Shown one piece after another: positions 5,008-47,795 of a DNA stretch of 57,285 bases (the stretch's first letter is position 1; every line of letters begins with the position of its first letter). The notes beneath the pieces were generated by a model, which saw nothing but the letters and a program-made list of their open reading frames with translations, was not told the DNA's origin and made no database searches. The stretch comes from Candidatus Cloacimonadota bacterium (GTDB lineage Bacteria > Hydrothermota > E44-bin80). The translations under genes were made by a program, and so were the position numbers. The stretch is taken from the NCBI GenBank assembly GCA_030633565.1, contig DAOVSH010000001.1, positions 1 to 57,285 on the forward strand. The letters are read 5' to 3'.

Positions 5008-5889
5008 CTATTTCCCTTTTGGTAATTCAGTACCTATAGGTGCACGAAGGAATTTTTTAACAGAGATATGACTGCCAATATATCCAAGTAAAGTTCCAAA
5101 AACTACTACAATTATAAATAATTCTCTTGTTACTTGTATAAAATCACCAAGCCTTGCAGCAAAAATATTATAAATACCAAAAAGAAGCCCCGATGCAAAA
5201 CCACCTGCCAAAATACCCTCAATTACCCCTTCTACAAGGAATGGGCTGATGATAAATCTATGGGTAGCACCCACGAGTTCCATTATTTCAATCTGTTTAC
5301 GCCGAGCAAAAACTGTTAATTTAATAGTATTTGCTACAACAAAAATAGAGGAAAAACTGATTATTACACCAAGAATTAAATCAATACCTACCAATACTTT
5401 TACGACTCTATCAAGGATTTTTACCCATTCTTCGCCATATTTTATTTCTTCTACACCTGGCATTGCATCAACCTTACGGGAGATACTTTCGAGATTTTTA
5501 GGATCCTTGAAACTCTCGTATAATTTAATGTCAAATGATGCTGGCAATGGGTTTGTCTCCAATGCTTCAAGAAGGTCTGAATCTTCCCCAAGGTCCTCTC
5601 TAAATTTTTCAAAAGCTTCGCTTTTTGATACAAAAATAACCTCTTGAACCCCCATTAGTGATGAAATATCTCTTTTTAATGATTCAATTTCGTTATCTGA
5701 AAGTTCATCTTCTAAAAAGGCACTAATTCCAACCTTCTCTTCTGCTTTTTGAATTAGAAGGAATAGGTTAACTGTTGAAATAAGAAAGAGACCAAATATG
5801 AAAAGAGAAAAGAACATAACACCGAAAGTCACGAGTGCCATCAATTTATTTTTAGAAAGTCCTCTGAATGCTTCTCTGAGAATAAACAT
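5008..5889 (-). CDS. ftsX: Cell-division ABC transporter permease FtsX
   Basis: 293 aa. N-terminal MFILREAFRGL motif, a large periplasmic loop, and three C-terminal TM helices. Directly downstream of the ftsE-like ATPase gene. Confidence 0.8.
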   Translation of the reverse strand: MFILREAFRGLSKNKLMALVTFGVMFFSLFIFGLFLISTVNLFLLIQKAEEKVGISAFLEDELSDNEIESLKRDISSLMGVQEVIFVSKSEAFEKFREDLGEDSDLLEALETNPLPASFDIKLYESFKDPKNLESISRKVDAMPGVEEIKYGEEWVKILDRVVKVLVGIDLILGVIISFSSIFVVANTIKLTVFARRKQIEIMELVGATHRFIISPFLVEGVIEGILAGGFASGLLFGIYNIFAARLGDFIQVTRELFIIVVVFGTLLGYIGSHISVKKFLRAPIGTELPKGK

Positions 5890-15149: not shown

Positions 15150-15460
15150 AAGATAAATCAGAGGATAGAAGGCAGAGGACAGAAGTCAGAAGGCAGAGGT
15201 CATAATGATTGTGAAACGGGGAAACGGAGTGTCGGAGAAACGGTGCATAAGCGAGTGAGATAAATTGTCTCATTAGTTAGATTAGTTGAATTGGTTTGAT
15301 TGGTTATGGGAACATAGCGTAATTAAGTAATTTGGTTATTGAGTAATTAACAGATAAGATTGCTTTATAAGAGAATATGAAAGTGTATTCGCAATGACAA
15401 ACTAACGGACTAAACGATAATAACGATCAAAACGCTCTAAACGAACTAAACGAAGTTAGT
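15150..15460 (+). repeat. Copy A of a modular intergenic repeat family (purine-rich AGRCAG tract plus modules shared with 22273-22384, 25724-26169, 29590-29960, 38890-39415)
   Basis: Shares long near-identical stretches with the other copies, e.g. tggttatgggaacatagcgtaattaagtaatttggttattgagtaattaacagataagattgctt...gtattcgcaatgacaaactaac...cgatcaaaacgctctaaacgaactaaacg. Confidence 0.8.
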
Positions 15461-18113: not shown

Positions 18114-19298
18114 TTAACTTTCTTTTTTAGGTTCCTCTTTTGGCTTATCACTTACAGCAAGGTTATTTCCACAATTGGGACAGAACTTTGTGCCTTCTGG
18201 AACATCCATCCCGCACTTTGAGCATTTTATAAGTTTTGGTGCAAGTGAAGCTCCACAGTTAGAACAGAATTTACTTCCTTTTAGAACTGGCTGATTACAC
18301 TTTGGACAATTTATCATCTCCATTTCAAGTTTTTCCCCGCATGCACTGCAGAATTTTGCTGTCGCAGGATTTAAGCCACCACATTTTGAACATTTAATCT
18401 GCGGACCTCCTGTCTGCCCATATGCCTGACTGATCATCCCAGGCATCATCATTCCCATTCCAAGACCTGCTCCGAGACCGAGACCTGCTCCAGCTGTTCC
18501 AGCTCCTCCACCTTCTCCGCCACCTCCCTGTTGAGCTGCATCCCTCAAGGCTCGTGCTGTTGAGAATTGCGTGAATTTACCAAGGTCACCAACAGCACCC
18601 ATACCTGAACGCTGGTCAATCATTTCCTGGACATCTGGAGGTGGAGTGATTGCATTGATATAGAAATCAACCAATTCTAAACCATATTTTGAAAAATCAT
18701 CATGAATTCTTGCCTTTGTTCCTGCTGCAACTTCATCGTAATGCTGAGGAAGGTCAAAGATACTCTTAAGATTCTCGCCTAAAAAATCTGTCAGACGTGC
18801 AATTATGATAGTCCTCAGGAAATCTTCTATTTCATTCCTTCTATATATGCCCTGTGTACCGACAGCTTTATTTATGAAAAGCTGAGGTTCGATTACCCTC
18901 TCACTATATGTACCGAATGCTCGCAAACGAACCATATGCAACTCTGTATCCCTGAATGGAATGGGCTCCTGGGTTCCCCATTTTGAGTTTGTAAAAACCT
19001 TTCCATTAACATAATATACCTCAACCCTAAAAGGGCTTTTACCATCAAATGCAGCACCAATGATTCTTCTTATCAATGGTAGGTTGAGAGTTGTCAAGGT
19101 GTGTCTTCCTGGACCAAATGAATCCAAAGCTTTCCCATCTCTGAAGAAGACCGCATACTGGTTTTCTCTAACAACCAGCTGGCTCCCAAGCTGAGTTTCA
19201 CCAGAACCTGTTTCCGGAATCCTGTGAGCAATTTCATCGCCTGTTTCGTCAAAAAACTCAATTACTTCAAAGAACTTTGCCATTTTACTTTCCTCCAC
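18114..19298 (-). CDS. SPFH/Band-7 (Band_7_1, YdjI-like) domain protein fused to three C-terminal double zinc ribbons
   Basis: 394 aa. The N-terminal ~250 aa resemble the YdjI-type SPFH domain (LGSQLVVRENQYAVFFRDGKALDSFGPGRHTL). A Gly-rich linker follows (GGGGEGGGAGTAGAGLGLGAGLGMGMMMPG). Three CxxC-x10-CxxC units follow it (CSKCGG...CSACG; CPKCNQ...CSNCG; CSKCGM...CPNCG). Confidence 0.7.
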   Translation of the reverse strand: MEESKMAKFFEVIEFFDETGDEIAHRIPETGSGETQLGSQLVVRENQYAVFFRDGKALDSFGPGRHTLTTLNLPLIRRIIGAAFDGKSPFRVEVYYVNGKVFTNSKWGTQEPIPFRDTELHMVRLRAFGTYSERVIEPQLFINKAVGTQGIYRRNEIEDFLRTIIIARLTDFLGENLKSIFDLPQHYDEVAAGTKARIHDDFSKYGLELVDFYINAITPPPDVQEMIDQRSGMGAVGDLGKFTQFSTARALRDAAQQGGGGEGGGAGTAGAGLGLGAGLGMGMMMPGMISQAYGQTGGPQIKCSKCGGLNPATAKFCSACGEKLEMEMINCPKCNQPVLKGSKFCSNCGASLAPKLIKCSKCGMDVPEGTKFCPNCGNNLAVSDKPKEEPKKES

Positions 19299-22029: not shown

Positions 22030-22272
22030 GTCTTCACCTCCTCTCTATAGTTTGAGGTTAAACTAAAAGTTTTTATGTGTATATCATAAATTTCAGATTT
22101 TGTCAAAGCATTTTTTAATGATTTCTAAAGAAATATTAATTACACTCTGTTGGATAGTAAACATATAACAGGGGTGTTCTTACTTATTTTCTTCTTGCCT
22201 TTTTAACAGGATAACAGGATGTTCAGGATTAAAGTGTTTTGTTAATGAGGAAAGGGTGTCATTTTGATATTT

Positions 22273-22384
22273 TAATTACTCAATTACCAAATTACTCATT
22301 TACGTTCATTTACAGCGAAGCGTTACTTTAACAGGCGAAGCCGTCTGTTTCACAGCGTCAGCATTTATTTGCAGCGAAGCGTTT
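22273..22384 (-). repeat. Partial copy (E) of the intergenic repeat family plus three direct repeats of CAGCGAAGC, in the 3' flank of addA
   Basis: ttaattactcaattaccaaattactca is the reverse complement of the gtaattaagtaatttggtaattgagtaattaa module. cagcgaagcg, caggcgaagcc and cagcgaagcg recur at roughly 25-35-nt spacing. Confidence 0.5.
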
Positions 22385-25723: not shown

Positions 25724-26169
25724 CTTTTTTCGCCCGTTTCAATAATTAATATCGTTTGGTGATTGATCTGAATGTAAGATATACAATGTACAATGTAATG
25801 TAGCCGCAGGCTCTTGTCCTGAGCGGAGTCGAAGGGTCAGCCTGCATAACGTAACAGCTTCTTCCAGCCGAAGGTTAACTTCCATCCTGAGATAATCGAA
25901 GGATATCTTCCATCCTGAGCTTGTAGTGAGGGACTCGAACTGAGAAGTCGAAGGATTACTTCCAATGCATAGCATTAATTCACTCTCCGTTTCCCCGTTT
26001 CGCATTTGTTCTGTCTTCCGTTATCTGTCTTCTGTCCTCTGACCTCTGTCCTCTGACATCTATCTTCTGTTATCTGTCTTCTGTCTTCTGTTCTATGTCT
26101 TCTGACTTCTGTCCTCTGACATCTGTCTTCTGTTATCTGTCTTCTGACCTCTGACCTCTGTCTTCTGAC
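25724..26169 (-). repeat. Copy D of the modular intergenic repeat (reverse orientation) plus a ~150-bp (TCTGWC)n hexanucleotide microsatellite, lying between addB and addA
   Basis: 25740-26000 is the near-exact reverse complement of 39045-39400 and 29600-29760. 26020-26168 consists of tctgtc/tctgac/tctgtt hexamers. Confidence 0.8.
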
Positions 26170-29043
26170 CTATATTGTTTTAGGACAGAATTCACTATAT
26201 ATACAGAAGGTTTCGCAACCCTGTTTAAATAATGGTTCGAAATTTAATTCCTTTATTTCCTTCCATACACGTTCAATATTTGAAATGAACATTTCAATAG
26301 GAATTTGATTTCTTTCTTCTATAATACAACCTTCCTTACTATTTATCACGTAATATGCTGTTTTTGCTACCTTTCCGATACATTTTTGAACGGCAAGATT
26401 GTAAATAGGAAATTGGAAGCTTTCACCATTCTCAATTTTTCTGTTACTCGGAAGATTGCTCTTACTGCCTGTCTTGTAATCGTAAATTATCAAACCATCG
26501 CTATTTCTATCAATCCTGTCAATTCTGCCAACAAAGCTTAATCTTTCACCATTACACATTATCCATACATCATTCTGGTAAAACTTCCACTCAACATCAA
26601 GAACTGTATGGTTAATATTTTCCATCACTTCAGTTTCGAGAAACTTTTGGAAAAGTGATTTATAATACTTTGATATTAGTTCAAGCCTCATTAGAATTCT
26701 ATCCCTTACTCCCGGTGCCATCTTCTCAATTGTTTCGAGAGCAATTTTTCGCAATTCTTCCCAGTTATTAATATGGTTTGTTTTAATTTTTTTAGAAAGC
26801 CTTCTTTCATAAAAACGTGCAAGGATGTGGTGGATAATTTTACCCTTTATAAGGTTATCAACACCTTCTTCGGGTTCTTCTAATTCTCCAAGATTTAGTA
26901 TGTAACGAAAGAAAAAACTGTATGGGCACCTTTTATACGTTTCAAGGGAAATTGCAGATATTCTATTTGACAATTCATTAATTCTTATTTCTACGTACTT
27001 TCTTAATTCCTCAGAAGAAAACAAAATCTCTTTTATATTTTGTAATCGATTTTCATCCCTGAGCCTTTTTACCGCATCCTTTATTATCGATACTCTGTTT
27101 CTCATATCTTCTAAAAATAAATTTTCATTGAAGCTTTTATCAGTATGTATGATTTCCCCGATACTCATCTGCCATTCCAACAGTGTGTATACCTTATCCT
27201 TAATACCCATATCTTCTTCTTCTTGAATTTCCTGAAGGAATGGGCTTTTTATAAAAACATTACCTTTTTCATCCTTCTCATAGTAAGAACAATAAACCTT
27301 TTTTGCACCTTTAATAATACTTTCAAAGTTAAATTTTGAAAGGGTATAGAGCATATCATAAGTTGGAAACCCCATTTCCTCGAGTAGTTTTTCAGAGAAA
27401 AGAGGATTGTGCTGTGGTTTTCTGGGAAGTTTTCCTTCAACAAGTCCTGTTAAAAAAACCCTGTTAAAATTCATTCCAGCAATCTCTTCAAGGTCCAACA
27501 TCTCTACCCTTGTATCTATCTTCTGTTCTAACGATATTTTCATTGACTCTGAGTACGAGAAAATTATTCTCTGAAAATCCATAATGCCAAATTCCTGAAT
27601 AGTATTTACAAGTGGTTTTCTTTTAATTGAGAGAATAAACCTCAGGAGTGAATTGTATGCTATTATTTCAATATCTTCATCTAATTGTATAAGGTTATTA
27701 AGTATTGAAACGTATTGTTCAATAAATGCTGTCCCCTTTTTTGACTTTAAAATATTAAGTTCTTTTATGAAATTTGAAACTACCCTAAACTTACCTTCCC
27801 TGTCTATTATTCTTTTCCAATCATCACCTGAAACAATCATTTCTTCCCTTGTGACTTTGTCAATTATCATTCGTTCATTATCCTTTAGTATTTTTATATA
27901 AGGTGACATAAGAAAACTTACTACAGCTCTTCTTTTGAAATTTTGATGTATAATCTCGAATATTGCAAGACAGGTTTTTATAACAGGGAATTGAATTAGT
28001 TCTTTTCGAAAAAGTGATGAAGGATGAATCGAATATCGGGGAAAGATTCTTTCAAAGGTTCTTGTATAATTTTCAATTTCAGTGGATATTATGATGATAT
28101 TTTTATCAGGATTTTCATCTTTCACTTTCCTTGCAATTGCATCAACCTCATGCTCTTTTTTTTCGTATTTAAGTAGTTTTATTTCAGGAACAAAATCTGA
28201 TTCCTTTGTTTTGATTTCAATTTCTTCCTTCTCTACATCAATAATTCCTGTTGTTGTGAAACGAGCTCCAGGGAAGGAATAGAAGAAATCAAGCAATGAT
28301 ACAGATTTTGCTTCTTTGTATATCTTCATAAAAAGGTTTTGTTCGATTCTTCTCAGTATTGAAAGATGTTCTATATAAAAAGAGTATTCTTTTAAAATGT
28401 GAGGTTTCAAATGGTCAATAACCCACCATCTTTTATCACTCTCATCAATAATCTCATTGTTACTAAGAAACTCTTCATATAGTGTAAAAACCTTACATAG
28501 TATTGATAACAGTTTCTCATTAAATCTATTTTCTCTATTTAAAAGATCAAAGCAGGATGAATCTTCACGATACGAAATTATACTATCCTTATATTTGAGA
28601 GAAAGATTATATTCTTTAATGTTCTTAATCCATTCGAGAAAGAAGTTTGCCGTTTCGGTAGAGAGTGAGAAATCACCAGTTCTGAAAAGATACTTTCTTC
28701 TATTTAATAGAAGATGACGTATTATAATTTTCGCGTATTCATCTGAAATTAAACGTTTTGCTGTTCTCTCTTCAGGGGGGAGCATATCGTATAAAAGATC
28801 AAATAGTGGTCGAATCGAGACTAACCATGGCTTTATTTTCATAAGATTTTTATTTCTCAAATATTCAATTAACCTCCTTATTTTATCACCGGAATTTGCA
28901 ACATAAATTATTTTTCTTGCCTTCTTCCCATTATCAAGTGAAAAATGGTCTGACGAATAATTGTTTTCTATTAGATTTTTTATAAGGAAGAATTCCTTTT
29001 CTTGATTATCTATTGTAAGCTTGAATATTTTTACTGATTTCAT
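26170..29043 (-). CDS. addB: AddB-type nuclease subunit (PD-(D/E)XK nuclease with C-terminal Fe-S Cys cluster; helicase-like N-domain degenerate)
   Basis: 957 aa. RecB-like nuclease motif GRIDRIDRNSDGLIIYDYKTG. Cys before the nuclease domain (YKRCPY) and a C-terminal CETFCIYSEFCP, as in AddB iron-staple proteins. Upstream of addA. Confidence 0.65.
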   Translation of the reverse strand: MKSVKIFKLTIDNQEKEFFLIKNLIENNYSSDHFSLDNGKKARKIIYVANSGDKIRRLIEYLRNKNLMKIKPWLVSIRPLFDLLYDMLPPEERTAKRLISDEYAKIIIRHLLLNRRKYLFRTGDFSLSTETANFFLEWIKNIKEYNLSLKYKDSIISYREDSSCFDLLNRENRFNEKLLSILCKVFTLYEEFLSNNEIIDESDKRWWVIDHLKPHILKEYSFYIEHLSILRRIEQNLFMKIYKEAKSVSLLDFFYSFPGARFTTTGIIDVEKEEIEIKTKESDFVPEIKLLKYEKKEHEVDAIARKVKDENPDKNIIIISTEIENYTRTFERIFPRYSIHPSSLFRKELIQFPVIKTCLAIFEIIHQNFKRRAVVSFLMSPYIKILKDNERMIIDKVTREEMIVSGDDWKRIIDREGKFRVVSNFIKELNILKSKKGTAFIEQYVSILNNLIQLDEDIEIIAYNSLLRFILSIKRKPLVNTIQEFGIMDFQRIIFSYSESMKISLEQKIDTRVEMLDLEEIAGMNFNRVFLTGLVEGKLPRKPQHNPLFSEKLLEEMGFPTYDMLYTLSKFNFESIIKGAKKVYCSYYEKDEKGNVFIKSPFLQEIQEEEDMGIKDKVYTLLEWQMSIGEIIHTDKSFNENLFLEDMRNRVSIIKDAVKRLRDENRLQNIKEILFSSEELRKYVEIRINELSNRISAISLETYKRCPYSFFFRYILNLGELEEPEEGVDNLIKGKIIHHILARFYERRLSKKIKTNHINNWEELRKIALETIEKMAPGVRDRILMRLELISKYYKSLFQKFLETEVMENINHTVLDVEWKFYQNDVWIMCNGERLSFVGRIDRIDRNSDGLIIYDYKTGSKSNLPSNRKIENGESFQFPIYNLAVQKCIGKVAKTAYYVINSKEGCIIEERNQIPIEMFISNIERVWKEIKELNFEPLFKQGCETFCIYSEFCPKTI

Positions 29044-29236
29044 TTATTATTTATTATCATACAAAAAATAAAATGTAAAGAAAAATAAAATGTAGACATA
29101 GTTTACAACTTTACAGCCTCCGTCCCTAATTTTATAATCTTAATAATAATTAAAATAATACTTGACATATTCAATATTATACTGTATATTGTTAATATGA
29201 ATATTGAATATGTTAACATTTAATCTGGGAGTGAAA

Positions 29237-29587
29237 ATGATTACTAAGTGTCCTGTATGTCATGGAGCGTTGGAGATAAGGGAGCTTGGGTGTAATAAAT
29301 GTGATGTAACTATAAGAGGAAAGTTTCCATTTTCAGGTATTTTTCAATTATCACCCGAACAAATGGAGTTTGTGAAAATCTTTTTAAAATCCAGGGGAAA
29401 TATAAAGGAGGTGGAGAAAGAAGTTGGAATTTCATATCCTACTGTAAGAGGTAAACTGAATGATGTTTTGAAAAGCCTTGGAATGGAGCCTGATAAGAAA
29501 TCTATGAAGAGGGAGGAAGTTCTTGAATCCCTTTCAAAGGGAGATATTACTGCTGAGGAAGCAGTTGAAAAGCTAAAGAAGCTATAA
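29237..29587 (+). CDS. DUF2089-family protein (N-terminal C4 zinc ribbon plus HTH-like region) with a C-terminal SHOCT-like motif
   Basis: MITKCPVCHGALEIRELGCNKCDVTIRG...LSPEQMEFVKIFLKSRGNIKEVEKEVGISYPTVRGKL follows the DUF2089 pattern. The tail is REEVLESLSKGDITAEEAVEKLKKL. GGGAG lies 7 nt before the ATG at 29237; the ORF track starts at 29204. Confidence 0.6.
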   Translation: MITKCPVCHGALEIRELGCNKCDVTIRGKFPFSGIFQLSPEQMEFVKIFLKSRGNIKEVEKEVGISYPTVRGKLNDVLKSLGMEPDKKSMKREEVLESLSKGDITAEEAVEKLKKL

Positions 29588-29589
29588 TT

Positions 29590-29960
29590 AAAGAGAATAC
29601 CTGACGGTGAAAAGAAGAGTGAATTAATGCTATGCATTGGAAGTAATCCTTCGACTTCTCAGTTCGAGTCCCTCACTACAAGCTCAGGATGGAAGATATC
29701 CTTCGATTATCTCAGGATGGAAGTTAACCTTCGGCTGGAAGAAGCTGTTACATTATATTGAATTGCAAGTTAAAAGGAGAAAAATTGTTTGATTGGTTAT
29801 GAGAACATATCGTAATTAAGTAATTTGGTAATTGAGTAATTAACAGATAAGATTGCTTCATAAGAAAATATGAAAGTGTATTCGCAATGACAAACTAACT
29901 GACTAAACGACAATAACGATCAAAACGCTCTAAACGAACTAAACGGTGTTATCTATTAAC
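29590..29960 (+). repeat. Copy B of the modular intergenic repeat family
   Basis: It begins 3 nt after the DUF2089 gene stop. The modules gagtgaattaatgctatgcattggaagtaa, ccttcgacttctcagttcgagtccctcactacaagctcaggatggaagatatccttcgattatctcaggatggaagttaaccttcgg, gtaattaagtaatttggtaattgagtaattaacagataag and ...aaacgctctaaacgaactaaacg are shared with copies A, C and D. Confidence 0.85.
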
Positions 29961-29997
29961 TTAAAAACTCAATAACTAAGTAAAGGAGGTGTAGAAG

Positions 29998-30747
29998 ATG
30001 AATGAGAGAATGAAGATATTGAAAATGCTTGAGGAAGGAAAAATAACAGCTGATGAAGCAGCAAAATTGCTTGAAGCAGTTGGAAAGGAGAAGAAGAAAG
30101 ATATTGGTTCAAAAGTTGTTAACGGGATAATGGATGGTGTTTCTTCCATTGTAGGAGCCATACCGGGAACGATTGGTAGTGTTTTTTGTTGTACAATGGG
30201 AGAAGAAAAGGAAATAAAGGTAGAAAAAGGTGATGCATTTATACTGAAATCAGTTGGTTCTTCCATTAAACTCTCTCACAACGATAAGGATGAATTTATA
30301 CTGAAACCAAGTTCTGGTTTGATAAAATCAAAAAAAGAAAATTCCACAATTACATCAAAGATAGTTGGAGGTTCGGTGAAGATTCTCTATCCTTCAAGTT
30401 TATCTGTATCTATAAAGGATGCAGGGGGAACAATTGAGGGAGTTGGTAGTGCAGTATTGTCGCTTAAGCAGGTAGGAGGCTCTACACAATTAACATTCGA
30501 TGAAATAGAAGATGTAAATATAGATTCTAAAGGAGGATCGGTTACTCTCTATGTAGGTGACTGTGATGTTGCATTTGATATTTCTGCACCGAACGGAGAA
30601 GTTGAATTTGATGTTCCTGCAAAGTTTACGGTGGAAAAAGAAGATGAAGTAAAGGGAACAATAAAAAAAGGGAAAGGGAAGCTTTTTATCTATGCATCTT
30701 ATGGTAATGTTTCTGTTTTGCCCTTAAAAGAAAAGGAGGAGAAATGA
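29998..30747 (+). CDS. N-terminal SHOCT-like motif plus DUF4097-like all-beta domain protein (LiaF/YvlB-type putative stress-response protein)
   Basis: 249 aa. N-terminal MNERMKILKMLEEGKITADEAAKLLEAVG. Then repetitive beta-strand segments (GGSVKILYPSS..., GSVTLYVGDCDV..., GNVSVLPLKE) typical of DUF4097. Confidence 0.5.
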   Translation: MNERMKILKMLEEGKITADEAAKLLEAVGKEKKKDIGSKVVNGIMDGVSSIVGAIPGTIGSVFCCTMGEEKEIKVEKGDAFILKSVGSSIKLSHNDKDEFILKPSSGLIKSKKENSTITSKIVGGSVKILYPSSLSVSIKDAGGTIEGVGSAVLSLKQVGGSTQLTFDEIEDVNIDSKGGSVTLYVGDCDVAFDISAPNGEVEFDVPAKFTVEKEDEVKGTIKKGKGKLFIYASYGNVSVLPLKEKEEK

Positions 30748-31004
30748 GTTTAAGAATTTGGGGACCTATAATACTCATCGCACTTGGTGTTCTTTTCTGG
30801 CTTGGTAAATTTGGTATCATTGATTTTTACTGGAGCAGGGATTGGCCAGTTATTCTTATAGTAATTGGTGTTTTCTCTCTTATTAATCTAATAGTCAAAA
30901 AAACGAGGAGAAGAAGTTCCAGGAACAAAAGAGATATATTAACCAAACTCGAAAACGGTAAGATAGATGCGGAAGAGGCAATAAAAAGAATAAAGAGGCT
31001 GTAA
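30744..31004 (+). CDS. Small two-TM membrane protein (LiaF/DUF2154-like N-domain) with a C-terminal SHOCT-like motif
   Basis: 86 aa: two hydrophobic helices (IILIALGVLFWL..., PVILIVIGVFSLINLIV), a basic stretch, then RDILTKLENGKIDAEEAIKRIKRL. Its start overlaps the upstream gene as ATGA. Confidence 0.5.
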   Translation: MSLRIWGPIILIALGVLFWLGKFGIIDFYWSRDWPVILIVIGVFSLINLIVKKTRRRSSRNKRDILTKLENGKIDAEEAIKRIKRL

Positions 31005-31095
31005 TAATAAGACAGAAGACAGATAGAAAGAGAGTAAGGAGTAGGTAGTAGGGAGTGAGCAGTAAACAACAAAAAAAATAAAAAAGGAGGAAGAA

Positions 31096-31491
31096 ATGGA
31101 CGAAAAATTAAAGATATTAAAAATGCTGGAGGATGGCAAGATTTCCAGTGAACAAGCCAATAAATTACTTGAAGCCATCGAAAATAAATCCAATAATATA
31201 GAAAGTAAAGCCAAATGGTTGAAAGTTAAAGTTATTGAAGATGGTTGCCAGAAAGTTAACATAAAGATTCCCTTAAAAGTAATAAGAATTGCAGCGAAGA
31301 TCGGTGGAAAATTAAACATTAATCTTCCAGAAGAAGCAAAGGAAAAACTTGCTGAGAAGGGGATAAACCTTGAAAAAATTGATGATGTTGAAAAATTAAA
31401 TGAGATACTTGAAGAGATTGAAAAAGAAGCACCATTTGAACTTGTAAATGTCGATGAAGGGACAAAAAAAGTTTTTGTTTATATTGAATAG
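31096..31491 (+). CDS. Small acidic protein with an N-terminal SHOCT-like motif
   Basis: 131 aa. N-terminal MDEKLKILKMLEDGKISSEQANKLLEAIENKS, nearly identical to the N-terminus of the 29998 gene. Strong GGAGG Shine-Dalgarno. Followed by a terminator. Confidence 0.45.
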   Translation: MDEKLKILKMLEDGKISSEQANKLLEAIENKSNNIESKAKWLKVKVIEDGCQKVNIKIPLKVIRIAAKIGGKLNINLPEEAKEKLAEKGINLEKIDDVEKLNEILEEIEKEAPFELVNVDEGTKKVFVYIE

Positions 31492-31502
31492 AACGTAAAA
31501 AG

Positions 31503-31534
31503 AAAAGCGGGGTTAAAAACCCCGCTTTTTTTAT
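31503..31534 (+). terminator. Rho-independent terminator ending the SHOCT cluster
   Basis: AAAGCGGGGTTaaaAACCCCGCTTTTTTTATT, 12 nt after the stop at 31491. Confidence 0.7.
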
Positions 31535-31656
31535 TAATAGAATAAAATTCTGTTGAGCTATTTCTTGTATTTTTCATATTTTTTCTTGACATTTTTGCAA
31601 ATTTATGCTATATTTATATTTAGAAAAGATAGTAATGAAAGGAGTGATAAAAAAAC

Positions 31657-38005: not shown

Positions 38006-38170
38006 AGAGAAATACAGAAGACAGATATCAGATAACAGACAACAGATAACAGATATCAGATAACAGACAACAGACAACAGATATCAGACATCAGACATCA
38101 GACATCAGACAACAGACAACAGATATCAGACATCAGACATCAGACAACAGATAACAGATAACCTCTAACA
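38006..38170 (+). repeat. Hexanucleotide microsatellite (CAGAYA)n, ~27 units, immediately after the rpoD stop
   Basis: cagataacagacaacagataacagatatcagataacagacaacagacaacagatatcagacatcagacatcagacatcagacaacagacaacagatatcagacatcagacatcagacaacagataacagataacc. This is the reverse complement of the (TCTGWC)n tract at 26020-26168. Confidence 0.9.
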
Positions 38171-38889: not shown

Positions 38890-39415
38890 AATAAGACAGA
38901 AGACAGCTCACAGCTAACAGCATACAGCTAACAGCTCACAGCTGACAGCATACAGCTAACAGCATACAGCTAACAGCATAACAAATTGAGTGATTGGTTG
39001 GAAGACAGAACGAATGCGAATCGGAGTATGGTAGTGTCGGAGAAACGGGGAAACGGAGAGTGAATTAATACTATGCATTGGAAGTAAGCACTTCGTGCTG
39101 GAAGATATCCTTCGATTATCTCAGGATGGAAGTTAACCTTCGGTTGGAAGAAGCTGCTACGTTATATTGAATTGCAAGTTAAAAGTAGAAAAATCGTTTG
39201 ATTGGTTTAATTTGTTTAATTAGTTGTATTGGTTATGGGAACATAGCGTAATTAAGTAATTTGGTAATTGAGTAATTAACAGATAAGCAGGCTCTTCGCT
39301 GGAGTGGGTTCGCAATGACAAACTTACGCAGGCTGACCCTTCGACTCCGCTCAGGACAAGAGCCTGCGGCTACCTTACATCGAAAATTTACATCCAGATC
39401 AATAGCCAAACGATA
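38890..39415 (+). repeat. (ACAGCW)n microsatellite followed by copy C of the modular intergenic repeat, with a GC-rich stem module at its right end
   Basis: 38893-38960 are acagct/acagca hexamers. 39045-39300 match copies B and D. 39290-39375 (caggctcttcgctggagtgggttcgcaatgacaaacttacgcaggctgacccttcgactccgctcaggacaagagcctgcggctac) matches the reverse complement of 25800-25860. Confidence 0.85.
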
Positions 39416-39418
39416 TTA

Positions 39419-40450
39419 ATGATGAAAAAGAGAATAATTGATGATTTATGGAATGAAATAGAAAAAATTCCTTTTAGATCAAAGAAATTGAAAGAACCTT
39501 TAGGAACAATACTCTTTTCATTACCAGATATTCCAGCTTATGTATTGCAAAACATGATTAAAAATATTAATTATATACCTAAAACACCTCCTTTCTTTTA
39601 TCCTTATAGAAATAATATATTTATAAAAAGGGTCATTAAAGTAAAAAAAGGCTTAAAAATTAAAACAGTGGTAGGGGAGAGGAAAGGTAATAAAAAAACA
39701 ATAATACTTGTTCATGGTATATTTCAGTCAAAGAATTTTAGATTTATCAGAGATATTGCTGAACATCTTTATAACTACTTTAACTTTAATGTTATTGTTA
39801 TTGATCTAAGAGATCATTTAGAAACAGGTTTTTTATCGCCTTGTTTTCCAGCCTCGTCTGGTTTCTTTGAAGGTAAAGATATACTTGAAATTGCATCGCA
39901 AATAAAATTTAAAAATACTGATCTAAAAATATTTCTCCTTGGTTTTAGCTATGGAGGTGGTATCGTTCTTAATGCGTTAAATTCATATAAAGCAAATAAA
40001 ATAATATCAGGTGTTATAGCTGTTTCTCCAAGTCTGATTCTTGAGGATGTAGTAAATCATATTGATACAAATCCAGGTTTTTTCTCGTCATTCCATCCAA
40101 TATATAATCTTTTTAAGCTATGCTTGTTTTTACGGTATCGTTTTAGAATAAAGACATTTGATGAGTACCTTGAAATAGCTGCTAAAAAGTATGGATTTGA
40201 AAAATATGAGATGATGAGAAGTAGTTCTGTTACAGAATTTATAGATCGAATTGACGTTCCTGCCCTTATTATTCTGTCGAAGGATGATCCTGTAATTCCA
40301 AGATGTAATATGAAGAAAGTTCTTGATGAATCTCAAATTAATAAAAATGTAAAAGTTCTTGTTAAAAATGAAGGTGGGCACATAGCATTTTCATTCATTG
40401 CTTCTTCATGGTTTTTTAAAGTGATTGATAAATTTGCAGAGCAATTCTGA
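39419..40450 (+). CDS. Alpha/beta-hydrolase fold protein (YheT-like putative esterase)
   Basis: 343 aa. HG motif ILVHGIFQS, nucleophile elbow GFSYGGG, and a downstream Asp/His in the expected order. Confidence 0.6.
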   Translation: MMKKRIIDDLWNEIEKIPFRSKKLKEPLGTILFSLPDIPAYVLQNMIKNINYIPKTPPFFYPYRNNIFIKRVIKVKKGLKIKTVVGERKGNKKTIILVHGIFQSKNFRFIRDIAEHLYNYFNFNVIVIDLRDHLETGFLSPCFPASSGFFEGKDILEIASQIKFKNTDLKIFLLGFSYGGGIVLNALNSYKANKIISGVIAVSPSLILEDVVNHIDTNPGFFSSFHPIYNLFKLCLFLRYRFRIKTFDEYLEIAAKKYGFEKYEMMRSSSVTEFIDRIDVPALIILSKDDPVIPRCNMKKVLDESQINKNVKVLVKNEGGHIAFSFIASSWFFKVIDKFAEQF

Positions 40451-47617: not shown

Positions 47618-47795
47618 ATTTTTTAGATTTGCTGTGCTACAGTAACTTCGTTTACTCCGTTTCGATCGTTAAAATCATTACTGATGTTTTAATCGTTAAT
47701 TGCGTTTGCCTGGTTTTACTTTTCACTTTTAACTTTTTACTTTTAACTTGACTAACATCTTACATCCCATAGTTTTTTGCTTGCGTTTTCTGCAC

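Follow-up and report, generated by a model that had tools for sequence, protein, structure and literature searches.

A four-gene operon with a common domain in every product

This work describes a cluster of four genes, g1 to g4, in a 57,285-nt stretch of contig DAOVSH010000001.1, which is referred to here as the window and contains 237 open reading frames (ORFs) of at least 40 amino acids (aa). The cluster is a single operon-like unit of a candidate division WOR-3 bacterium, and each of its four products carries the same short SHOCT-like domain, called the tag in the following. The encoded proteins are a DUF2089 regulator, a Toastrack (DUF4097) protein, a membrane stub of the LiaI/LiaF type, and a small protein with an unnamed domain, here termed X. 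The locus is best described as a new architecture, in which a split LiaF-like unit is inserted into the pair formed by DUF2089 and SHOCT-like+X genes and in which every part is tagged. The four genes, with nucleotide positions of the window, are the following.

29237..29587, + strand: g1, DUF2089 regulator, 116 aa; zinc ribbon at 29249-29332, helix-turn-helix (HTH) at 29348-29485, C-terminal SHOCT-like two-helix tail at 29510-29584
29998..30747, + strand: g2, 249 aa; N-terminal SHOCT-like domain at 30001-30096, Gly/Ser-rich linker, Toastrack/DUF4097 Pfam match at 30397-30717
30744..31004, + strand: g3, two-helix LiaI/LiaF-type membrane stub; transmembrane (TM) region at 30756-30878, C-terminal SHOCT-like tail at 30927-31001
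31096..31491, + strand: g4, 131 aa; N-terminal SHOCT-like domain at 31099-31188, unnamed C-terminal domain X at 31210-31488 (residues 39-131)

All four ORFs that an earlier note on this DNA had delimited are present, with one start codon corrected. The most likely start of g1 is the ATG at 29237, which is preceded by GGGAG, and not the TTG at 29204, since a 100%-identical database protein (P0001, named as being from a candidate division WOR-3 bacterium) has 116 aa and close homologues have 115 to 120 aa. The genes are regarded as one unit because each of them is preceded by a Shine-Dalgarno sequence, the start of g3 overlaps the stop codon of g2 as ATGA, and the cluster has a single conserved promoter and a single terminator.

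The tag is a domain already present in Pfam

The motif common to the four proteins is a genuine domain that is already part of Pfam, namely, SHOCT-like_DUF2089-C (PF22746). Its cut-off of 27 bits is passed by g2 (47.1 bits), g4 (38.9 bits), and g3 (28.8 bits); the tail of g1 scores 15.5 bits, which is under the cut-off, and homologues of g1 at about 50% identity pass it. The family is not the canonical SHOCT (PF09851) that had been suggested in the earlier note, as PF09851 matched none of the four at E <= 1. The occurrence of the motif on all four proteins, also claimed there, was confirmed with an independent hidden Markov model (HMM), which was built exclusively from Bacillota loci, using the tails of DUF2089 proteins and the N-termini of their partners, with the window and its close relatives excluded. 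This HMM gave scores of 45.8 bits for g2, 43.7 for g4, 38.5 for g1, and 36.5 for g3, and the next best of the 237 window ORFs scored 4.2 bits. The tag is present on exactly these four ORFs.

The tags fall into two classes. An HMM of the C-terminal class scored highest on g1 (44.5 bits) and g3 (32.1 bits), and one of the N-terminal class scored highest on g4 (48.7 bits) and g2 (47.2 bits); neither model had been trained on g3 or g2. For g1, this C-class score and that of the independent HMM concern the same residues as the sub-threshold PF22746 match. These classes would fit a heterotypic pairing of g1 with g4 and of g3 with g2.

Domain content of the four proteins

The g1 protein is a member of the DUF2089 family: both Pfam models, Zn_ribbon_DUF2089 (PF22747; 43.8 bits, cut-off 27.6) and DUF2089-HTH (PF09862; 83.7 bits, cut-off 33.4), score above their cut-offs, and the four zinc-ribbon cysteines (C5, C8, C19, and C22) are present and invariant in 15 homologues. 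A total of 877 homologues were found. The AlphaFold2 (AF2) model of g1 (pLDDT of 78.5) consists of a beta zinc ribbon, a three-helix HTH, and a two-helix tail. Its nearest folds in Foldseek were HTHs of the LuxR/GerE/sigma-4 type, all at E >= 0.15 and none significant, and a sequence search for a solved structure returned a weak GerE similarity of the HTH only (E = 0.015).

In g2, PF22746 covers residues 2-33 and Toastrack/DUF4097 (PF13349) reaches 25.3 bits, compared with a cut-off of 22.9, over the C-terminal half of the model only. The assignments of g1 to DUF2089 and of g2 to DUF4097 that had been made from the sequence alone are thus both upheld by the Pfam search. Among the g2 orthologues, PF22746 was detected in seven out of seven and DUF4097 in six out of seven (best E-value of 4.9e-8). 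The Gly/Ser-rich linker between the two domains is moderately hydrophobic. A TM helix at residues 47-66, which would place the Toastrack domain outside the cell, was considered and rejected: the hydropathy is borderline (1.55), and the linker is not a conserved TM helix, because there are indels between orthologues, with deletions of 3 to 7 residues at this site. No solved structures related to g2 were found.

The g3 protein matches LiaI-LiaF-like_TM1 (PF18917; 40.1 bits), LiaF-TM (PF22570; 35.5 bits), and, at residues 62-86, PF22746. It belongs to the LiaI-LiaF-like TM proteins, passing the cut-off of 27 bits and containing two hydrophobic stretches with 19-residue Kyte-Doolittle averages of 2.2, and it is made up of two TM helices and the tag, with nothing else. 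The KKTRRRSSRNKR stretch that follows TM2 implies, by the positive-inside rule, that the tail is cytoplasmic. This tail is kept in all six orthologues.

The only Pfam match of g4 is PF22746 (residues 2-31). The protein had been described as small and acidic; with a pI of 5.3 it is only mildly acidic. Its X domain (residues 39-131) corresponds to no Pfam or NCBIfam family, Foldseek against PDB returned nothing (best E-value of 1.4), and a profile search against PDB sequences gave noise only. Two possible identities of this protein were rejected. X is not a small Toastrack domain, given that hhalign against the g2 family yielded a probability of 0.45%, and g4 is not the split-off N-terminal half of YvlB or LiaX, given that SHOCT-like+Toastrack proteins of 350-417 aa contain no match to the X HMM.

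Domain X is fused to a tag, a membrane anchor, or an HTH

An X-only profile was searched against 1.84 billion representative proteins at E <= 0.001. It retrieved 1099 clusters, nearly all of which are 115-150 aa long with X at the C-terminus. In the best 150 of these 1099 clusters, the N-terminal partners of X include the following.

SHOCT-like (PF22746): 126 of 150 clusters
LiaI-LiaF-type membrane hairpin: 3 of 150 clusters (P0299, P0348, P0395)
Xre-type HTH_3: 2 of 150 clusters (P0391, P0329)

X is therefore joined either directly to an HTH or to a LiaF-type anchor or else to a SHOCT-like tag, in which case the operon also encodes a DNA-binding protein and, in the present cluster, a LiaF-type anchor with a matching tag. 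This Rosetta-stone pattern is the main argument that the tag may be a docking module. The earlier note had suggested that the motif mediates assembly or signalling, and the fusions favour the former; the mechanism put forward below is a proposal. No family could be assigned to the genes beside the HTH_3-X and LiaF-TM-X fusions (L092, L093). Another X-domain protein, P0403, has two copies of X and a signal-peptide-like N-terminus; P0316 is listed beside the rare X-domain variants.

Conservation of the gene set

The same four genes are found in the same order in six WOR-3-like relatives (L001/L002, L084/L085, L086/L087, L088, L089, and, partially, L004), in which g1 is 68-85% identical. One of these, L004 (CAZOEM010000815.1, 1550 bp), is binned as 'uncultured Halobacteria archaeon' and carries a WOR-3-type g1-g2-g3 with a g1 that is 75% identical; this contig is probably bacterial and wrongly binned. 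Two distant metagenome-assembled genomes contain parts of the set. L090 has kept g1-g2-g4 and is without g3, and its g2 orthologue is 30% identical, with the SHOCT-like tag as the sole domain detected by Pfam; on its 5.7-kb contig, a HEAT-repeat protein is encoded downstream and no sigma factor is present. In L091, only g1 and g4 are present.

Across 185,579 species genomes, 80 DUF2089 loci were identified, mostly from Bacillota; together with L001-L003 they form a sample of 83 loci that is biased toward relatives of the query. In 73 of the 83 loci, an X-domain gene lies 3' of the DUF2089 regulator, on the same strand and within 2.5 kb, and four of the remaining ten are truncated contigs. The X domain of the window aligns with that of the Bacillota partners. 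Priestia megaterium (BMQ_3692 and its neighbour) is one carrier of the DUF2089 and SHOCT-like+X pair. Since an X-domain gene follows the regulator in 73 of 83 loci, g1 and g4 are taken to be the ancient and constant unit and g2 and g3 to be lineage-specific additions. SHOCT-like+Toastrack proteins were found in few Bacillota loci (L007, L025, L077, and L078), and the stub that combines LiaF-TM with the tag was confined, among the 83 loci and the relatives, to the WOR-3-like lineage. Of the co-conservation on which the earlier note had made its view depend, and of the DUF2089-DUF4097 neighbourhoods for which it had proposed a search, it is thus the lineage-level part that stands: the set of four, including the Toastrack gene, is kept in the WOR-3-like relatives, but across phyla only g1 and g4 persist, and the constant partner is of the g4 type. 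The WOR-3 operon is the most complete version found, with the regulator, the membrane anchor, and two globular domains all tagged.

These data bear on the possibility that unrelated small proteins with a low-complexity helical motif in common are neighbours in the cluster by chance or through synteny alone. The motif is indeed short, with a high content of E, K, A, and L, and the closest relatives also share the flanking synteny, with AddAB upstream and rpsU and MutS2 downstream. However, the gene set persists where the flanks change (downstream in L001, upstream in L088), the g1-g4 pair recurs across Bacillota, g2 and g3 overlap through ATGA, and the independent HMM gives 36-46 bits for g1-g4, compared with 4.2 bits or less for every other window ORF. 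A chance neighbourhood is hardly credible; the independent HMM scores and the recurrent regulator-X pair effectively refute it.

A further gene is found in the vicinity of the cluster in two genomes. Some 10 kb upstream of the cluster, the window encodes a Band-7 + zinc-ribbon protein (18126-19283, - strand), and a 75.6%-identical protein is encoded 2.6 kb upstream of the cluster in L088 (220-1368, - strand). This architecture is tied to PspA operons in Bacillus (YdjL-like).

Regulatory signals and an inserted repeat

The features of the cluster outside its coding sequences are the following.

29162..29190, + strand: sigma-70-type promoter of the cluster; TTGACA, 17 nt spacer, TATATT, with 11 of 12 consensus positions
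29192..29207, + strand: candidate operator TTAATATGAATATTGA, a near 7-2-7 palindrome directly 3' of the -10 element
29604..29951, + strand: copy of a mosaic dispersed intergenic repeat, inserted in the g1-g2 interval
31503..31536, + strand: intrinsic terminator; 12-bp stem with 6 G-C pairs, then a T-run

In the promoter upstream of g1, ACTTGACA and TATATT are invariant in the six relatives, and the surrounding sequence has diverged. The stretch that follows the -10 element is a candidate operator for the g1 cluster. It is located inside an inverted repeat (29162-29178 and 29200-29216; 17 nt, 94% complementary) that brackets the -10 element, and both overlap a period-21 direct repeat (29173-29220; 2.3 copies according to Tandem Repeats Finder) that covers the -10 region as well as the 5' end of the g1 mRNA. 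The sequence TTAATATGAATATT, in its fuller form TTAATATGAATATT(A/G)A, is found exactly in the promoters of four of the six relatives. The operator-like motif occurs once in the window, for 0.84 occurrences expected by chance, and no second copy that could define a regulon was found elsewhere in the window.

The strong terminator that had been reported at the end of the cluster was corroborated, since the hairpin at 31503-31529 folds at -21.1 kcal/mol (z = -5.7). The search for known RNA families in the cluster region returned only sub-threshold matches, on this hairpin. The genes flanking the cluster are an AddB-like gene (26170-29043, - strand), rpsU, and MutS2. The rpsU gene, downstream of the terminator, has its own promoter at 31586-31614. 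This promoter is strong (TTGACA, 17 nt, TATATT, and a TG extension; window 31561-31614) and is embedded in a 21-bp direct repeat consisting of two copies of TTTCTTGACATTTTTGCAAATTT.

The intergenic repeat copy that had been said to separate g1 from the other three genes is real. Other copies are present in the window at 15196-15458, 25785-26001 (- strand), and 39000-39428, with fragments at 22260-22304 and 47643-47701, and the repeat is missing at the g1-g2 junction of relatives, as illustrated by a 32-bp gap in L001. The g1-g2 gap measures 410 bp in the window, compared with 21-284 bp in relatives. Within the inserted copy there is no terminator on the + strand, the promoter-like sites are weak, and the predicted RNA folding is not in excess (29604-29951, z = 0.41). 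Co-transcription of g1-g4 is still probable.

Several observations concern the repeats themselves. Modules of the dispersed family (for example, 29604-29756 and 29751-29951) are recombined differently in each copy, and no Rfam match to the family was found in the region searched. Long tandem arrays of 7-nt units directly adjoin the dispersed repeats at 26009-26167, 38021-38162, 38903-38983, and 15158-15202; the units include TTCTGTC (22.7 copies), ACAGACA (20.3 copies), and ACAGCTA (11.4 copies). A short AGACAGA tract (31008-31025) lies in the g3-g4 spacer, which is enlarged to 91 nt here compared with 18-63 nt in relatives. As the g1-g2 gap of the relative L084 is also enlarged (5426-5711, 284 bp), the g1-g2 junction may be a recurrent insertion site for intergenic repeats.

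Relationship to known systems

The closest published counterpart is provided by Ravi et al. 2024 (mSystems, PMC11237479), who defined SHOCT-like domains and split DUF2089 into zinc-ribbon, HTH, and SHOCT-like parts. They connected DUF2089 with Toastrack and LiaI-LiaF-TM proteins and listed "DUF2089 -> SHOCT-like+X" as a pair. In the operons that they described, DUF2089 is accompanied by sigma and anti-sigma factors and by membrane-anchored Toastrack proteins, some of them on LiaI-LiaF-TM anchors. They predicted, by comparative genomics, a Lia-like signalling that transmits a membrane signal to transcription. Modules of this Toastrack/LiaI-LiaF-TM/DUF2089 kind are known only from comparative genomics.

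The WOR-3 cluster has in common with these contexts the zinc ribbon-HTH-SHOCT-like regulator, the SHOCT-like+X partner gene, the association with Toastrack and LiaI-LiaF-TM, and the same proposed role. The DUF2089 -> SHOCT-like+X pair is present, with g1 and g4 on the same strand and g2 and g3 between them. In contrast to the published contexts, the Toastrack and LiaF-TM domains are here two separate tagged proteins inserted between the genes of the pair, all four products are tagged, and the lineage is WOR-3. There is also no sigma factor and no zf-HC2 anti-sigma gene: the four-gene context of Ravi et al. (sigma factor, zf-HC2, Toastrack, and DUF2089) has no sigma/anti-sigma counterpart in the window cluster or in the six relatives.

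A second likeness is to LiaF. The g3 protein is a LiaI-LiaF-type TM hairpin and g2 contains a Toastrack-type beta domain related to the C-terminal domain of LiaF, and together the two proteins resemble a split LiaF. Unlike in LiaF, the two halves are separate proteins, and none of the four proteins matches LiaF-like_C (DUF2154, PF09922) at E <= 1, a family for which the earlier note had proposed a search. Nor does the cluster resemble a LiaFSR system in its other components. Both a LiaS/LiaR two-component pair and a LiaIH effector are missing from it, its regulator is an HTH protein of the DUF2089 family and not a response regulator, and no LiaS histidine kinase or LiaR response regulator is adjacent to it; neither a sigma factor nor a two-component gene is among the immediately flanking AddB, rpsU, and MutS2 genes. 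The earlier view of a split LiaF/PspC-type envelope-stress sensor with a DUF2089 regulator agrees with the published prediction (PMC11237479) as regards its general outline, but DUF2154, PspC, and PspA are not found in the four proteins; PspA and PspC were absent from their Pfam matches, and the flanking genes and the rest of the window were not searched for them.

The g2 protein further resembles YvlB of the Bacillus subtilis yvlABCD operon and LiaX of the Enterococcus liaXYZ operon, in which an N-terminal SHOCT-like tag is followed by a Toastrack/DUF4097 domain, and UniRef names the relatives of g4 'YvlB/LiaX N-terminal domain-containing'. Two-hybrid assays detected contacts of YvlB with PspA, LiaH, and Yvl membrane proteins (PMC9239133), and LiaX modulates LiaFSR (PMC6936494). 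Unlike these proteins, g2 has 249 aa (365 in YvlB and 533 in LiaX) and is without their long helical N-domain, and the cluster has no PspC-type (YvlC/LiaY) neighbour. This likeness raises the possibility that g2 to g4 are LiaX/YvlB-type protective or structural effectors, such as membrane-repair scaffolds or antimicrobial peptide binders, and not sensors; g1 would then be an ordinary repressor that responds to another signal, and the tag would only co-localise the products. YvlB and LiaX, with the same tag and Toastrack domain, are effectors or modulators of the Lia/Psp responses, and the NCBIfam models of LiaX and LiaG (NF038025, NF049997) match g2 and g4 weakly. However, these matches of 16-19 bits (17 bits for the LiaX model) are far under the cut-offs of 350 and 285, YvlB-like proteins do not contain the X domain of g4, and the tag on the regulator itself, together with the near-universal regulator-X gene pair, suggests that the regulator is part of the complex. 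An effector role of this type is considered improbable.

Canonical SHOCT domains (PF09851; PMC3581485) are likewise short two-helix modules that are located at protein termini and attached to many unrelated domains, and they differ in that the motif of the cluster belongs to a separate Pfam family. HAAS/PadR-like winged HTH pairs and one-component regulators also combine a small DNA-binding protein with a signal-receiving partner encoded next to it, and the HTH_3-X fusions look like ordinary one-component regulators. The domains of the HAAS/PadR-like pairs are unrelated to those described here, and the link between HTH and regulatory domain would in the present case be non-covalent, through paired tags. 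No PADLOC match to anti-phage defence was obtained for any of the four proteins.

A proposed docking mechanism

The reading preferred here, which is held with moderate confidence, is that the operon encodes a membrane-proximal signalling module of the Toastrack/LiaI-LiaF-TM/DUF2089 kind that works by tag docking and partner switching. The SHOCT-like two-helix hairpin of about 28 residues would be a protein-protein docking tag, located at the C-terminus of two 'platform' proteins, namely, the DNA-binding g1 and the membrane anchor g3, and at the N-terminus of two 'globular-domain' proteins, namely, the Toastrack protein g2 and the X-domain protein g4. If g2 docks to g3, the two would reconstitute a LiaF-like unit of anchor and Toastrack domain that is not covalently joined; g4 and g1, once docked, would likewise amount to a one-component regulator with an HTH and a regulatory domain. 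If g1 and g3 compete for the same tags, a change at the membrane, possibly envelope stress, would alter the amount of free regulator that acts on the operator-like site of its own promoter. The published proposal that these families pass membrane signals on to transcription and the two-hybrid contacts of YvlB also speak for this reading. The present data show the domain content, the common tag, the structure of the operon, its conservation, the cytoplasmic g3 tail, and the different fusions of X, and from these tag-tag docking, exchange of partners, autoregulation, and envelope stress as the signal are inferred.

The main rival to docking is independent membrane anchoring. According to this explanation, the hairpin is a peripheral membrane-binding element that recruits each protein to the inner leaflet independently and without specific tag-tag contact, and the regulator is held at or released from the membrane. 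An inner-leaflet anchor is the function favoured in the published prediction, in which the tag replaces N-terminal TM anchors of Toastrack proteins (PMC11237479), and Eberhardt et al. 2013 (PMC3581485) saw no self-association of the one canonical SHOCT domain that was tested. The fusions of X point in both directions: those with LiaF-TM show X working beside the membrane, but those with HTH_3 place X on a DNA-binding protein and not at the membrane. The tags are, moreover, hydrophilic overall (mean Kyte-Doolittle hydropathy of -0.55 to -1.1), and g3, of which the tag is the sole soluble part, is already an integral membrane protein. The g3 protein argues for docking because a lipid-anchoring tag would be redundant on a protein that already consists of two TM helices and the tag. 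On balance, we consider anchoring without tag-tag contact to be rather unlikely.

In addition to the two literature findings just cited, a number of points weigh against the docking module. The difference between the N- and C-terminal tag classes may be a mere effect of position in the protein. The operator-like sequence is AT-rich, diverged in two of the six relatives, and statistically not distinctive in the window. The AF2 model of g4 is poor (pLDDT of 58.5, from a 35-sequence alignment), and no fold can be assigned to X from it; one X-domain protein, P0403, has a signal-peptide-like N-terminus. The location of Toastrack domains is disputed, with LiaX reported to be surface exposed (PMC6936494) and the DUF4097 domain of LiaG to be extracellular (PMC9239133). 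Within the cluster, there are no PspA, PspC, sigma factor, or two-component genes. Finally, no experimental study of any DUF2089 system was found in the full-text literature, where DUF2089 otherwise appears only in gene tables.

A stronger form of the docking hypothesis can be envisaged, in which the two tag classes constitute a heterotypic docking code, with C-class tags on the regulator and the membrane anchor and N-class tags on sensor-type domains. The cluster would then be a split one-component system that operates by partner switching without phosphorylation or proteolysis. This extension is regarded as speculative and somewhat doubtful.

Implications

DUF2089 regulators and their SHOCT-like+X partners are common, as evidenced by the 877 homologues of g1 and the 1099 representative clusters of X. 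That X can be fused to an HTH or a LiaF-type anchor provides a concrete hypothesis for the role of the SHOCT-like module, a question that dates from the description of SHOCT in 2013. Should docking be wrong, the locus would be one more case of an already catalogued gene neighbourhood. Should it be true, it would explain how the Toastrack proteins at the periphery of the Lia/Psp responses, such as YvlB and LiaX, are connected with their partners, and LiaX is of relevance to daptomycin resistance. If the docking code were also true, it would represent a widespread and so far unrecognised principle of bacterial signalling, given the hundreds to thousands of DUF2089 and X-domain clusters.

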